Shown here one piece after another: positions 22,690 to 28,856 of a DNA stretch of 34,571 nt. The stretch's first letter is position 1; each line of letters opens with the position of its first letter. The stretch is from the NCBI GenBank assembly GCA_016839785.1, contig JAEOTQ010000194.1, positions 1 through 34,571 on the forward strand, read 5' to 3'. Below the pieces are notes generated by a model, which was given only the letters and a program-made list of their open reading frames with translations, was not told the origin of the DNA and did no database searches. The DNA comes from Candidatus Hodarchaeota archaeon. GTDB taxonomy: Archaea; Asgardarchaeota; Heimdallarchaeia; Hodarchaeales; Hodarchaeaceae. The translations under genes and the position numbers were made by a program.

Positions 22690-23601
22690 TCACCCATCAA
22701 ATATAGGCGCTTTTTCCTTATTTTGCTCAGAAAGCGGATGTCCTAAATCATAAGATTTACGTAAATGCGCTAAACTGACATGTGTGTACAACTGTGTGGT
22801 TGAAAGGGAAGCATGACCCAATAATTCTTGTATAACTCGGATATCAACGGAATTAGCAAGTAAATGTGTAGCAAAGGCATGTCTAAGTGTATGAGGGGTT
22901 AATTTTTTATCCTGTAGATTAGCTTGTTCTCGATATTTTTTTACTAATCGCTGGATTGATCGTGAAGTTAAACGATCTCCCGATCGATTCAAAATTAGTG
23001 CGGATGTTGATGAATCCTGACGACGGTTTTCCAGGTATTCTTCTATGATTGGTATGAGTACATCAGGGAGAGGAATTAATCTATCCTTATTTCCTTTCCC
23101 TCCAATAATTCTTAACATTCGATTGTCAAGGTCTACACAATCTACATTCAGATTACTGAGTTCAGATACTCGCATTCCAGTACCATAAAGAAGAAAGAGT
23201 ATTGTTCGATCTCTGATATTATCAGGCGTTCTTAGAAGTTGTAGTGTTTCCTCTACAGAGATAGTTTTTGGTAAGCTTTTTGGTATTTTCGGAGATTCTA
23301 TGTTCTCTGCTGGATTGGTTGAGATAAAAGCTTCTTTCTTGAGAAATTTGTAGAATGACTTGAGTGAGCAAATCTTTCGATGAAGACTCCGAGGTGAGTA
23401 TTTTTTCTCTCGCTTTAAGTGTAAGAAGAAACGACGTAAGTCAGTTGTCGTTCTCATCTCAATAGATCGTTCACTATTAAAGGTATTAAACATTTGAAGG
23501 TCATAAGAATATTCTCGTATTGTTTTTGGAGAGTATCCTTTCTCTACTTCTAACCAAACTAGGTAATCATCAATTAGCATAATTTTGAAATTTGACGACA
23601 T
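22690..23601 (-). CDS. xerA: Tyrosine recombinase XerA (XerC/D family)
   Basis: N-terminal SAM-like domain and the full catalytic set: TGMRVSEL, GKGNKDR, HTLRHAFATHLL and LLGHASLSTTQLYTH. Confidence 0.9.
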   Translation of the reverse strand: MSSNFKIMLIDDYLVWLEVEKGYSPKTIREYSYDLQMFNTFNSERSIEMRTTTDLRRFFLHLKREKKYSPRSLHRKICSLKSFYKFLKKEAFISTNPAENIESPKIPKSLPKTISVEETLQLLRTPDNIRDRTILFLLYGTGMRVSELSNLNVDCVDLDNRMLRIIGGKGNKDRLIPLPDVLIPIIEEYLENRRQDSSTSALILNRSGDRLTSRSIQRLVKKYREQANLQDKKLTPHTLRHAFATHLLANSVDIRVIQELLGHASLSTTQLYTHVSLAHLRKSYDLGHPLSEQNKEKAPIFDG

Positions 23602-26979: not shown

Positions 26980-27963
26980 ATGTGTAGGTATACTAGGAGA
27001 CCATTTGATTTGAAGGAAACACCAATTAGCGATCTATCCCCCCTCAGATCTAAGGCGAGAAATTCGTCAGAATTGGGTTCCAGATCACTCCGAGGATCAG
27101 ATATATTGGTTATTCTTTCTGATGAGGGAGGTTTACCTGTTTATACCAGATTTGTACAGGTTAATGATCTTGGTGACATAACTTACAAAGATACTCCTTC
27201 TACACGCGCTAGTAACGAAAATATTGTTTTGATTTCAGGTCTACTTGAAGCTATCATCCAACTTAAAGACATCATTAAACCTACACTAATAGATTTAACT
27301 GGTAAGCCTAATTCACCAATTTATGTAGATTATGCTAAGGCAGAAAGCGGGATTAGTTTGCTTTCATTGGCCACATCTCCAGAGTTTCAACAACTTCCAG
27401 GGCATTTATTAAGTCAGTATGTACCTTTTCAGAGCGATATCAAGGTCTCAAGTGCGGATTCATGGGAAAAAAACTTTGAGGAAGCGATAGAAAGTCCCTT
27501 AGGGGAAGATGCTGCAATTTATAAAAATATCCTTGGTAAAATTAAGATTGATTTAGCTGATTTCGTGTCTTTTATACTCGTATACGATTATGAAGGGAAT
27601 TACTTATTTTCGACTGCAAAACAACAAGAATTACAAGGAGTTTCAGACCCATTGCTTAATTCAATCTCGCAGTATATCAAACGAGAATATTTAATGCACA
27701 GATATCGGGAAAATCTTACATTAATTGGCGCTAAACGACTACATGATTCAGTCATCTGGCATTTCAAATGTTTCGATAAAATCTTCGTATTTTTCACTTA
27801 TATTATACCCGATTTATACAATTTCGATATTTTAAAGACCGAAATGATCACATTCATAACTAATAACTTGGAGAAGTTCATAAAAGCTACCAAATTATAT
27901 TCCTCGCCTCCTGGTTCAGTTTCTAGTAATATTAAAACAACTCGGTTTACATTTCTATCTTAG
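26980..27963 (+). CDS. Hypothetical protein with probable tandem longin/roadblock-like domains
   Basis: ILVILSDEGGLPVYTR...IVLISGLLEAIIQL is a longin beta-hairpin plus SGLLxAI helix. A second hairpin is FILVYDYEGNYLFS. The start may be TTG near 27010. Confidence 0.55.
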   Translation: MCRYTRRPFDLKETPISDLSPLRSKARNSSELGSRSLRGSDILVILSDEGGLPVYTRFVQVNDLGDITYKDTPSTRASNENIVLISGLLEAIIQLKDIIKPTLIDLTGKPNSPIYVDYAKAESGISLLSLATSPEFQQLPGHLLSQYVPFQSDIKVSSADSWEKNFEEAIESPLGEDAAIYKNILGKIKIDLADFVSFILVYDYEGNYLFSTAKQQELQGVSDPLLNSISQYIKREYLMHRYRENLTLIGAKRLHDSVIWHFKCFDKIFVFFTYIIPDLYNFDILKTEMITFITNNLEKFIKATKLYSSPPGSVSSNIKTTRFTFLS

Positions 27964-28061
27964 CTTTGATGGATTTGACATCTATAAAGTGAAAATATTT
28001 TTAATGATTTTGAGTTATAGAGGGGAGTACTGTAATCAAAATCAAGAAATAAAGGATTCTA

Positions 28062-28856
28062 ATGTCAAACGATAGATCAGATAATCCAAAAGTTGAATTT
28101 GCCAAATCGGGAAGATCCAAATGCCGTGGATGTCAAGAAATAATCACCAAGGCTACACCTCGAATTGGAGTTCCCTCACCATTCACTACACCAAAGGGAG
28201 AGGTAATAACCTCTTATCGCTACTACCATGTAGGATGTACACCTCGTTACATTATTCAAGATATAATTTCATTCTTAACAAAGGAAAACCTTGAAGATTC
28301 AGATTTACAGAAGGATACACTCGCTAGCTTGAATCAAATACTGAAAAAAGAACCTTTAAAAGAAACAAGATCTGAGCAACAGACCGAAAAATCGTTTCTT
28401 GAATATGCAAAAAGCTCTCGTGGTAAATGTAGGGAATGTGAGGAAAAGATTGAAAAGGATACCGTGCGAGTGGCTGAGCCAACGATAGTTGAATTAGATG
28501 ACGGGAGAAAATTCACTTCAAAAAAATATTTTCATGTTAATTGTCATTTAACCAATGTAAATGACCCCAAATCAGAATTAACGATCTTAATTGAAGTTTC
28601 ACTTGAGAAGAAGACAATTCAAGAAGAACAAGCCCTACAAATCAAACAAAAATATGCTGATTTAGATGAGAAAGCAATGGGGGTCGACGAAATTCTTGCA
28701 GGAATCGGGGGTGAAGCAATCAATTTCTCTGTTTTACGTTCCATTGCTAAAGAAAAGGGTGTACAATTCGAATTAATCGAAAAAGCAATAGATAGGGGAT
28801 TAATGCGGGGTGAATACTTTAAACCTACATCAGATACTGTACAAAAATTGGTTTAG
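28062..28856 (+). CDS. Tandem PARP-type zinc-finger protein with C-terminal winged helix
   Basis: VEFAKSGRSKCRGC...YYHVGC and LEYAKSSRGKCREC...YFHVNC. The C-terminal IEKAIDRGLMRGEYFKP has an MCM-like WH pattern. Confidence 0.88.
   Translation: MSNDRSDNPKVEFAKSGRSKCRGCQEIITKATPRIGVPSPFTTPKGEVITSYRYYHVGCTPRYIIQDIISFLTKENLEDSDLQKDTLASLNQILKKEPLKETRSEQQTEKSFLEYAKSSRGKCRECEEKIEKDTVRVAEPTIVELDDGRKFTSKKYFHVNCHLTNVNDPKSELTILIEVSLEKKTIQEEQALQIKQKYADLDEKAMGVDEILAGIGGEAINFSVLRSIAKEKGVQFELIEKAIDRGLMRGEYFKPTSDTVQKLV

Follow-up and report, generated by a model that had tools for sequence, protein, structure and literature searches.

A Tandem PARP-Type Zinc-Finger Protein Ending in an MCM-Type Winged Helix: A Candidate Non-Enzymatic DNA-Break-Binding Adaptor in Hodarchaeota

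Introduction

What would a pair of PARP-type zinc fingers do in an archaeal cell if it came without the polymerase? Fingers of this kind are familiar chiefly from eukaryotic PARP1 and ligase III, where they sense DNA breaks, and the question is raised by a gene in a Hodarchaeota contig, where two of them precede a winged helix (WH) in a single small protein. The gene, here called zf-PARP-WH after its order of parts (zf-PARP, linker, zf-PARP, winged helix), lies on the forward strand at 28062..28856 of the window, that is, of the whole 34,571-nucleotide stretch of DNA that was analysed, and stands in its ORF list as a complete frame of 264 codons plus stop. The combination of two zf-PARP fingers with an MCM-type winged helix is a new domain architecture assembled from known modules. 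The most reasonable reading of the evidence set out below is that the protein would sense breaks and serve as an adaptor with no need of PARylation. For comparison, a 2014 survey (PMC4245714) describes archaea as lacking PARP.

The Gene and Its Distribution

The gene occurs in 20 of the 22 genomes of one genus, all of them MAGs labelled Hodarchaeota or Heimdallarchaeota; 18 give a full-length profile match, one carries a truncated form and one a form with an insert. Synteny around the gene is conserved across the genus, down to 38% identity. Because of this occurrence and this synteny, the gene is regarded as real and under selection. The 24 full-length homologues are 37–69% identical, and the cluster representative (P0001) is 98% identical to the protein described here. 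A precomputed label, PF26927, is attached to two of the homologues.

Profile searches that included other Asgard lineages and bacteria did not find the complete architecture outside that genus. The survey of Asgard genomes called for in the earlier note thus places it in a single genus, with other zf-PARP layouts in the other Asgard lineages. The fingers as such are not peculiar to the genus, since bacteria and several further Asgard lineages have zf-PARP proteins of other layouts. For example, 10 of 151 sampled Acidobacteriota genomes gave a match to PF00645, and seven of these ten had two matches in a single frame. Relatives of the fingers have been joined to a variety of partners. In the genus member P0030, an Ssb-like OB fold (PF21473, E 2e-13) is inserted between the fingers, and P0046, a zf-PARP protein from elsewhere in the Heimdall class, is collinear with this OB-bearing protein (27% over 278 aa); plant-type matches combine fingers with PNK3P, while eukaryotic matches combine them with PARP1 domains. 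A DNA-damage context is suggested by these unions of fingers with an Ssb-like OB fold, PNK3P or PARP1 domains.

The genes next to zf-PARP-WH encode Dph2, a roadblock/longin-like protein, a GDSL hydrolase and a membrane protein, and provide no DNA-repair context. The roadblock/longin-like neighbour, o327, was considered as a functional clue and set aside, its C-terminal half resembling roadblock/longin domains (Z 7-9), which have no link to DNA; it has no Pfam match, its Atlas matches are archaeal clusters only, and its model is of low confidence (pLDDT 56.6). An origin from a mobile element was likewise rejected: a Xer-type integrase does lie 4.5 kb upstream, but it too belongs to the gene order that the genus conserves, and G+C content is even (0.33-0.40).

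Within the 98 nt that separate the gene from what precedes it, a purine-rich run followed by an A/T-rich box, 56-73 nt before the ATG (27989..28006, forward strand), was picked out by eye alone as a putative archaeal BRE/TATA element. In a check for expression, contigs from three sequencing runs cover parts of neighbouring genes and none lies on the body of zf-PARP-WH; one 236-letter contig of run X3, which is probably DNA, reaches the final ~47 bases of the gene. Being contigs, they carry no weight for or against expression.

Two PARP-Type Fingers without an Enzyme

The AlphaFold (AF2) model of the protein has a pLDDT of 84 and resolves its parts. Finger 1 (residues 10-95; 28089..28346, forward strand), matched by Pfam PF00645, consists of a beta core (strands 10-13, 33-42 and 48-56) followed by two helices (62-74 and 80-95). 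Finger 2 (residues 112-197; 28395..28652, forward strand) has its best Pfam stretch at 114-172 and is likewise followed by two helices. Between them lies a linker (residues 97-108; 28350..28385, forward strand) of predicted disorder (pLDDT < 50) and poor conservation (mean consensus share 0.32).

That both fingers are complete, as had been claimed from the sequence, is borne out by the translation, in which the ligand sets C21/C24/H56/C59 and C123/C126/H158/C161 are present, each preceded by the reported E[FY]AKSxR motif (E12-F-A-K-S-G-R18 and E114-Y-A-K-S-S-R120). All eight zinc ligands, together with R18 and R120, are invariant in the 24 aligned full-length homologues (24/24). The proposed HMM check gave two PF00645 matches far above chance (E 2.3e-24 and 86.4 bits, the curated cut-off being 39.3), and in a six-frame search each finger passed the cut-off alone, with 47.3 and 42.5 bits.

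The best matches among solved structures are fragments of human PARP1 Zn1-Zn2, and they are collinear with the protein. The family profile aligned residues 1-169 of the query with residues 1-170 of the PARP1 F1F2 chain (E 7e-21), and Foldseek matched the model to the same fragment with an E of 6e-10. When the fingers were compared singly by VIA, the finger 1 model matched PARP1 Zn1 (3od8) with Z 9.4 and an rmsd of 2.4 over 83 aligned residues, while the finger 2 model (range 107-202) matched Zn2 (3odc) with Z 8.9 over 87. The human ligand numbering given in the earlier note (C21/C24/H53/C56 and C125/C128/H159/C162) can be read directly from the profile alignment.

The same alignment places R18 and R120 opposite R18 and R122 of PARP1, which a review (PMC8150716) describes as the phosphate backbone grip that is key to DNA-break binding. 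The finger cores have mean net charges of +4.8 (finger 1) and +2.3 (finger 2). Agreement with PARP1 is less complete at the loops. The earlier note had read R18 and a VPSPF motif as the PARP1 grip and base-stacking loop; both R18 and V37-P-S-P-F41 are there, but in this alignment F41 falls opposite PARP1 S41 and not opposite F44. In the sequence-profile alignment it is P44 of the family that faces the stacking residue F44, the conserved F/Y standing three residues earlier, and the Zn2 loop residues of PARP1 have no hydrophobic counterpart in the family. Position 41 is nonetheless aromatic throughout (F in 21 and Y in 3 of 24 sequences), position 151 is F or I, and both residues lie in or adjoin hairpin loops. 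The mode of base stacking may thus differ from that of PARP1.

As had been observed for the ORF and its surroundings, Pfam finds no PARP catalytic, WGR, BRCT or ligase domain in the protein, nor in any of 15 ORFs around it. Searches of the genome of origin, which is 84.5% complete, with PF00644 and PF05406 returned no match, and PF00644 was not found in any of the 22 genomes of the genus (0/22), a count that has no positive control, as 14 control genomes likewise showed no match. The protein falls outside the definition of a PARP1-type polymerase, having no PF00644, WGR or regulatory domain.

The C-Terminal Winged Helix

The last part of the protein (residues 199-264; 28656..28853, forward strand) was assigned as a winged helix from its structural matches and its homology to MCM profiles. 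Its pLDDT block means run from 70 to 92, with 201-210 the sole block as low as 70. The fold proposed for this region was confirmed by VIA, where winged-helix matches form a continuum of Z 6.3-8.5 that includes DNA-binding and Z-DNA-binding examples. The Rpa2 winged helix of P. abyssi was matched with Z 8.1 (25% id), and the MCM C-termini of M. thermautotrophicus (2ma3) and S. solfataricus (2m45) with Z 6.9 (20% id) and Z 6.5, respectively. The winged helix is a generic fold, and no Pfam HTH family matches the protein at E up to 1.

The resemblance to MCM suggested in the earlier note proved to be real by sequence profile as well as by fold. The full family profile matches the last ~65 residues of an MCM-sized frame in the genome of origin (E 2.4e-8) and the C-termini of MCM-sized frames in > 20 other Asgard genomes, where MCM-sized means ~690 aa, or 834-1756 aa, and Pfam confirmed MCM on one frame (L016). 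A profile of the winged helix alone, run against the 18,576 ORFs of the genome of origin, retrieved nothing beyond the domain itself and the MCM C-terminus (E 8.3e-11), and hhalign paired the family winged helix with 18 Asgard MCM C-termini at 98.3% (E 2.4e-14, 59 columns, 29% id). In the other direction, all family members tested are matched at their C-termini by the MCM-WH profile. A reciprocal best relation fails, as this profile ranks two ORFs of the same genome, one Rpa2-like (5.8e-6) and one of 451 aa (2.9e-4), slightly before the zf-PARP-WH protein (3.1e-4). The Rpa2-like protein was matched by the MCM-WH profile only, and the family WH profile gave no match to it at E up to 10. Judged by these profile relations, the domain is one of a broader MCM/Rpa2-like group of winged helices and a paralogue of the winged helix that ends its own genome's MCM; its identity to the MCM winged helix is 25-29%.

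Like the MCM winged helices (mean net charge -2.8), the domain is slightly acidic (-1.6). In Sulfolobus, the MCM C-terminal winged helix interacts with ORB-bound Orc1-1, according to a published report (PMC12141716), and the structurally close RPA32C/Rpa2 winged helices were solved with partner proteins, as their entry titles state. Docking is preferred here over DNA binding because of this acidity, the Orc1-1 contact in Sulfolobus and the partner binding of RPA32C/Rpa2. The genome of origin encodes four Orc1/Cdc6 paralogues. For one of these (contig C119; 384 aa, ending at the contig end), a complex prediction with residues 199-264 scored 0.26, below the mark of 0.32, which speaks neither for binding nor against it.

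Ancestry of the Finger Pair

The earlier note had also raised the possibility that the finger module of PARP1 and ligase III came from archaeal fingers such as these. This is unsupported by the best tree, in which all eukaryotic fingers form one group apart from the zf-PARP-WH family; ligase III fingers lie outside the tree, none having been identified among the 150 matches listed. The second finger of the family groups instead with the second fingers of prokaryotic two-finger proteins (96/97). A quick tree of 129 finger segments was discarded, as a constrained search reached a higher likelihood. AU tests gave p values of 0.074-0.115 for the alternative topologies, the archaeal-source alternative having p 0.074, and none was rejected because the finger data are too short. 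Profiles of the two fingers, compared with Zn1 and Zn2 of 26 PARP1-type proteins, showed no consistent preference of the first for Zn1 or of the second for Zn2.

On present data, the zf-PARP-WH fingers appear not to be direct ancestors of the eukaryotic ones, and the tree tempers the idea that they were. The spacing of the two fingers is, as had been pointed out, near that of PARP1 (102 residues from first Cys to first Cys, vs 104). This spacing is probably parallel and not inherited, because neither the tree nor the wide occurrence of zf-PARP lends support to an archaeal source.

Possible Function

Taken together, these features give a slightly better than even chance that the gene encodes a small, non-enzymatic adaptor that binds DNA breaks. 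By analogy with PARP1 Zn1-Zn2, the two basic finger cores would bind nicks, gaps and DNA ends independently of sequence, drawing on the invariant backbone-grip arginines R18 and R120 and on hydrophobic side chains in the beta-hairpin loops. The slightly acidic winged helix would then dock a protein partner rather than DNA, and once docked could flag the break to replication or repair factors with no ADP-ribosylation involved. The weakest step is the identity of the partner, which by analogy with Sulfolobus could be an Orc1/Cdc6 paralogue or some other factor that normally recognises the winged helix of MCM. A more specific proposal, and a distinctly unlikely one, is that the winged helix has retained the surface through which the initiator receives MCM, and so brings an Orc1/Cdc6 paralogue, and with it MCM loading, to nicks or broken forks or else blocks that step. 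If true, this would amount to break-coupled, origin-independent control of helicase loading by a PARP1-like sensor and without poly(ADP-ribose).

Other functions are conceivable. The winged helix could be a third DNA module or a dimerisation surface, in which case the protein would be purely DNA-binding, an architectural or end-protecting factor that caps, shields or bridges nicks and DNA ends. Nucleic-acid binding is common among winged helices, the best structural matches here include ZBP1 Z-alpha solved with nucleic acid (Z 8.4) as well as E2F-DP and regulators of the Fur type, and the bacterial-type two-finger proteins, which show no extra domain, indicate that fingers alone can be a functional unit. 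This possibility is nevertheless an unlikely one, given that the domain is acidic (-1.6), as MCM winged helices are (-2.8), and that its sequence kin is the MCM C-terminal domain, which contacts Orc1-1 in Sulfolobus according to the report cited above (PMC12141716). The same kinship would fit a decoy that occupies the initiator or loader site at damage and restrains helicase loading or origin firing, much as a checkpoint-like brake. Its paralogy with the winged helix of the genome's own MCM, the four Orc1/Cdc6 paralogues and the Orc1-1 binding described for Sulfolobus (PMC12141716) would all suit such a role, but at 25-29% identity the binding surface need not persist, and a decoy is considered quite improbable.

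A damage-responsive transcription regulator, in which the winged helix reads a specific operator and the fingers sense breaks or unusual DNA structures, would draw on the commonest archaeal regulator fold, the winged helix-turn-helix, and several of the structural matches are indeed to Fur, PadR and IdeR regulators. The sequence kinship is to MCM and not to regulator families, however, with no Pfam HTH match; the domain is acidic, and no conserved divergent target gene adjoins it beyond the general synteny of the genus, all of which makes this reading very unlikely indeed. Finally, the target of the fingers might be something other than breaks, such as RNA, a hairpin or a DNA-RNA junction, and the protein might work in primer or replication-fork metabolism. 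At the stacking loop their residues fail to line up with PARP1, and the joining of a finger to OB folds in relatives would fit a role at ssDNA/dsDNA junctions. As the backbone-grip arginines and the entire fold are conserved, and as this grip is presented as key to PARP1 break binding in the review noted above (PMC8150716), such a substrate is very unlikely.

The break-binding adaptor thus remains the preferred reading. The sensor module of PARP1 is thereby shown to occur apart from the enzyme in Hodarchaeota/Heimdallarchaeota-labelled archaea, where it is wired to a copy of an MCM-type docking domain; sister lineages have wired their zf-PARP fingers to OB folds instead. The protein also offers a simple, testable system for studying a PARP finger pair on its own and the coupling of break sensing to archaeal replication proteins.

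Comparison with Known Systems

Among prokaryotes, the bacterial-type two-finger proteins (165-219 aa; e.g., L030 of Acidobacteriota and L031 of Planctomycetota) are also stand-alone, enzyme-free tandem zf-PARP proteins. They differ in having no winged helix (0 matched by the WH profile), and as far as the searches went, no characterisation of them was found. Other zf-PARP proteins of the Heimdall class are built as finger-insert-finger (~316-326 aa) or as a finger plus an OB-like part (~218 aa), while Asgard single-finger proteins of ~230-250 aa place the finger C-terminal to a ~150-aa domain; none of these layouts includes an MCM-type winged helix.

In eukaryotes, PARP1 Zn1-Zn2 (PDB 2N8A, 4AV1, 3OD8 and 3ODC) has the same N-terminal tandem of CCHC fingers, collinear over ~170 residues, with the same fold (Z 9.4 and 8.9) and the same backbone-grip arginines. 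The F44 and D45 positions of PARP1 are not conserved in the family, however, and the Zn3/PADR1, BRCT, WGR, regulatory and catalytic domains are all missing from the archaeal protein, which ends in a winged helix where PARP1 has none. The finger of ligase III alpha (PDB 1UW0), which was matched by the family profile (E 2.5e-8) and by Foldseek, is likewise a nick-sensing zf-PARP carried by a protein other than PARP, but there a single finger accompanies a ligase, whereas here two fingers occur with no enzyme.

The closest parallels for the C-terminus lie with replication proteins. Archaeal MCM winged helices (2MA3, 2M45 and that of the organism's own MCM on contig C99) share the fold, the extreme C-terminal position, the acidic character and a G-x-x-F-x-P ... 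Q-K ending with the domain described here, although they sit on an AAA+ helicase and not on zinc fingers, and identity is 25-29%. By structure, the best replication-protein match is the winged helix of RPA32/Rpa2 (9F27, 4MQV and 1DPU; Z 8.1, 25% id). RPA32 binds DNA through an OB fold and zf-PARP-WH would do so through zinc fingers, but a docking winged helix that terminates a DNA-binding protein is the logic proposed for zf-PARP-WH.

Gene and Domain Identity

The plus-strand gene at 28062..28856 of the window is an ORF of 264 codons, and its product almost certainly combines two zf-PARP fingers with an MCM-type winged helix. Translation of the ORF places the zinc ligands of finger 1 at C21/C24/H56/C59 and those of finger 2 at C123/C126/H158/C161, and the motif E-[FY]-A-K-S-x-R lies upstream of each set (E12...R18 in finger 1 and E114...R120 in finger 2). 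The coordinates, motifs and ligand numbering of an earlier note proved correct when checked against the ORF, its translation, Pfam and the PARP1 alignment, and the zf-PARP HMM search that it had called for returned two matches to PF00645 (E 2.3e-24; 86.4 bits, where the cut-off is 39.3). An NCBIfam scan of the protein gave no significant match. The top solved structures by sequence were the human PARP1 two-finger fragments 2n8a and 4av1, with which the protein is collinear; the tandem fragment (F1F2) matched at E 4e-11 when the query was this one protein and at 7e-21 when it was the family profile (query 1–169 against chain 1–170). A word-indexed search gathered 28 homologues, and in the alignment of the 24 full-length ones (255–295 aa) both CCHC sets are invariant (24/24), as are E12, A14, K15, S16, R18 and R120. 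The gene is genuine and its sequence well conserved. Two family members, P0006 and P0011, bear the precomputed Pfam label PF26927.1.

An AlphaFold2 model built from this alignment (mean pLDDT 84.2) comprises finger 1 (residues 10–95; three strands and two helices), a disordered linker (97–108), finger 2 (112–197) and a C-terminal helix-strand-helix-helix-hairpin unit (199–264). Foldseek ranked PARP1 F1F2 first (E 6e-10), and an aligner independent of Foldseek matched residues 5–92 to PARP1 Zn1 (3od8; Z 9.4, rmsd 2.4, 83 aligned) and residues 107–202 to Zn2 (3odc; Z 8.9).

Kinship of the C-Terminal Domain with MCM

The same independent aligner matched residues 199–264 to many winged helices at Z 6.3–8.5, including the DprA C-terminus (Z 8.5), ZBP1 Z-alpha (Z 8.4), the Rpa2 winged helix of P. 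abyssi (Z 8.1, 25% identity), RPA32C (Z 7.4) and the MCM C-termini of M. thermautotrophicus (Z 6.9, 20% identity) and S. solfataricus (Z 6.5). Because the matches are spread so widely, structure alone gives "winged helix" and nothing finer, and specificity comes from sequence.

When 400 genomes of the phylum were searched with the family profile, alignment columns ~198–263 matched the extreme end of frames that measure either ~690 aa or 834–1756 aa. The protein's own genome gave such a match (C99:12544-12738, E 2.4e-8), as did more than 20 others. Pfam identifies one of these frames, L016 (689 aa), as an MCM (MCM_N, MCM_OB, MCM and MCM_lid), and the longer ones are read, from length alone, as intein-bearing MCMs. 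Among 18,576 six-frame ORFs of at least 50 aa in the own genome, a profile of residues 199–264 matched only its own protein and the MCM C-terminus (E 8.3e-11). Comparison with 18 Asgard MCM C-termini by hhalign gave 98.3% probability (E 2.4e-14; 59 columns, 29% identity), and pairwise BLASTP with the MCM C-terminus gave 25% over 63 residues. The reverse search of the own genome with an MCM winged-helix profile was less exclusive, returning MCM (4.9e-34), an Rpa2-like ORF with an OB fold and weak RPA_C (5.8e-6), a 451-aa ORF (2.9e-4) and the zf-PARP/winged-helix protein (3.1e-4). Out of 179 collected proteins, the family's winged-helix profile matched 36 and the MCM profile the C-terminal domain of 34, all of them family members or their fragments. 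The domain is one of an MCM/Rpa2-like group, with MCM as its nearest relative in the own genome. The earlier note had called it an MCM-type winged helix and had proposed comparing it by structure and by profile; the first comparison bears out the fold, and the second, through the winged-helix-only profile and hhalign, the kinship with MCM.

A third carrier of the module occurs in another Asgard family, in proteins of 238–274 aa (L032–L036; G340, G359, G342, G357 and G335) where an N-terminal zinc ribbon is followed by two winged helices, the last of MCM type; these proteins also have weak DUF5817_CT and DUF1922 matches. MCM itself, cut by the contig end (C99) in the own genome, lies directly 5′ of a same-strand 742-aa frame (G000 C99:10000-12825, L015; L016) that looks, by eye from its helicase motifs, like a Hel308/Ski2-type helicase.

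Distribution and Genomic Setting

Profile searching found a near full-length match in 18 of the 22 genus genomes, own included. One genus genome has the frame cut at 171 aa, and in another, G064, the two halves are parted by an insert (P0030, 372 aa; G064:C1:650599-651714). Two more (83% and 71% complete) yielded the MCM match alone, with no zf-PARP/winged-helix gene found. The same search across 400 genomes of the phylum found no fingers joined to an MCM-type winged helix outside the genus. The Asgard survey proposed earlier thus places the full architecture in one genus only, and the fingers, in other layouts, elsewhere in Asgard. Against a representative library of 1.84 billion proteins, the family profile gave 1336 matches at E<=1e-3 and 17 at E<=1e-30.

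Dph2, a 327-aa ORF and the zf-PARP/winged-helix gene lie on one strand, and the opposite strand encodes a GDSL hydrolase and a membrane protein. Every locus whose flanks are long enough keeps this order, even where identity falls to 38–45%. G+C is even across the window, and inheritance of the gene within the genus is vertical. The 327-aa ORF (26980-27963, plus strand) lies 98 nt upstream and shares the narrow range of its neighbor, occurring in 19 of the 21 other genus genomes. Five further families of the class gave 0/59 genomes, and the sister family has weak kin. The ORF was not found in the same two genus genomes without the zf-PARP gene, a joint absence that may reflect nothing more than a gap in the assembly of both at this region. 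The ORF has no Pfam match, and the C-terminal half of its low-confidence model (pLDDT 56.6) resembles roadblock/longin domains (Z 7–9). In G064, this upstream gene, too, is broken into two parts that lie far from each other.

A Xer-type tyrosine recombinase (22690-23601, minus strand; Phage_integrase and SAM-like N domain) was considered as a sign of a mobile element and rejected as such, being a chromosomal Xer that is kept in place across the genus at 71–91% identity.

Other Layouts and Phylogeny of the Fingers

The fingers themselves are not confined to this genus. Other Heimdall-class families encode finger-insert-finger proteins of ~316–326 aa and a finger with an OB-like tail (218 aa), while a type of ~230–250 aa with a single finger C-terminal to an unnamed ~150-aa domain (L020–L022; G011, G355 and G318) is widespread, occurring in many genomes of two further Asgard families. 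In P0030, an Ssb-like OB fold (PF21473, E 2e-13) sits between the two fingers and the winged helix is kept; the protein is collinear with the 316-aa finger-insert-finger type, in which a Pfam scan did not confirm the OB fold. For the two-finger-only proteins of 165–219 aa, similar ORFs are present in one Acidobacteriota and one Planctomycetota record. Among 151 sampled Acidobacteriota genomes, 10 contain PF00645, and 7 of the 10 have it twice in one frame. Eukaryotic matches included PARP1 architectures, as expected, and multi-finger proteins with PNK3P, which we take to be of the plant ZDP type. P0098 (165 aa; G079:C593:3414-3698), which may come from the sister genus within the order, pairs a single finger with a short helical domain at its C-terminus, and that domain matched neither winged-helix profile.

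A quickly built tree from 129 segments of single fingers was unreliable, since a constrained search reached a better likelihood. A careful tree of 61 of those segments (87 columns) took 7/14 family proteins, 5/11 finger-insert-finger, 7/17 bacterial-type, 7/14 PARP1-type and 2/4 PNK3P-type proteins and 4 single-finger rows, where "bacterial-type" and "PARP1-type" are labels given by likeness and Pfam architecture, not by taxon name; one row with a 5.6-long branch and some singletons were left out. The second fingers of the family group with those of the finger-insert-finger and bacterial-type proteins (96/97). The eukaryotic fingers in the tree (Zn1, Zn2 and PNK3P-type, with no ligase III fingers) all fall into another group (98/94), which sits with the first fingers of bacterial-type proteins (94/82) and with the single C-terminal fingers of Asgard proteins. 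These Asgard fingers, of the L020–L022 type, share their side of the main split with the eukaryotic ones. Family first fingers stand across a 97/95 split from the eukaryotic group.

This grouping favors a prokaryotic tandem that would predate the family, with a separate Zn1/Zn2 duplication in eukaryotes. AU tests rejected none of three alternatives, namely, family fingers 1 and 2 as one clade (p 0.099), all second fingers including Zn2 as one clade (p 0.115), and eukaryotic fingers with the family as one clade (p 0.074). The finger phylogeny that had been proposed therefore puts the second finger with prokaryotic second fingers, at a resolution where the AU test excludes no alternative. The most exciting evolutionary claim, that archaea were a possible source of the PARP1/ligase III fingers, is unsupported by the present tree, where the eukaryotic fingers group separately.

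Proposed Function and Comparison with PARP1

By analogy with PARP1, the fingers probably bind DNA breaks, whether nicks or ends. In the favored reading, the winged helix would dock a replication or repair partner, at about even odds. A passage of one paper (PMC12141716) has the Sulfolobus MCM C-terminal winged helix interacting with ORB-bound Orc1-1, and by that analogy Orc1/Cdc6 would be an improbable but conceivable partner. Four Orc1/Cdc6 paralogues are encoded in the own genome, and one of them adjoins a PolD small-subunit-like gene. The best-scoring paralogue (L055; G000 C119:1-2611), cut by the contig end, converges tail to tail with an opposite-strand frame of 470 aa that by eye resembles the PolD small subunit, and such a pair could mark a replication origin region.

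A full-text literature search returned no description of an archaeal or Asgard zf-PARP protein of this kind, although supplementary tables may list the Pfam family; on Heimdallarchae and PARP it gave one Hel308 paper, as judged by its listing. The portion consulted of a 2014 survey (PMC4245714) describes archaea as without PARP. The domain architecture is new relative to the searchable literature text, and the modules themselves are known. It is of moderate interest that archaea labelled Hodarchaeota/Heimdallarchaeota join a PARP1-like sensor, in the absence of PARP itself, to a docking domain of a helicase. Neither PF00644 (PARP catalytic domain) nor PF05406 (WGR) was found in the own genome, which is 84.5% complete. 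The WGR control was positive in E. coli and D. radiodurans; PF00644 was found in 0/22 genus genomes, a count whose sensitivity is unproven, as no control genome was positive for it.

The finger cores are basic (net charge +4.8 for finger 1 and +2.3 for finger 2), and the family winged helix is slightly acidic (−1.6), as are MCM winged helices (−2.8). PARP1 R18 and R122, described in part of PMC8150716 as the phosphate backbone grip that is key to DNA binding, align with R18 and R120 of the family. The mode of base stacking may differ. In the profile alignment, PARP1 F44 lies opposite P44, with a conserved F/Y41 three residues earlier, and the Leu and Ile of the Zn2 loop (chain positions 151 and 154), where the same source places the stacking residues L161/I164, lie opposite K150 and S153. 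PARP1 activation, again according to that part of the source, needs D45, which is not conserved in the family, as would be expected where there is no catalytic domain to be activated.
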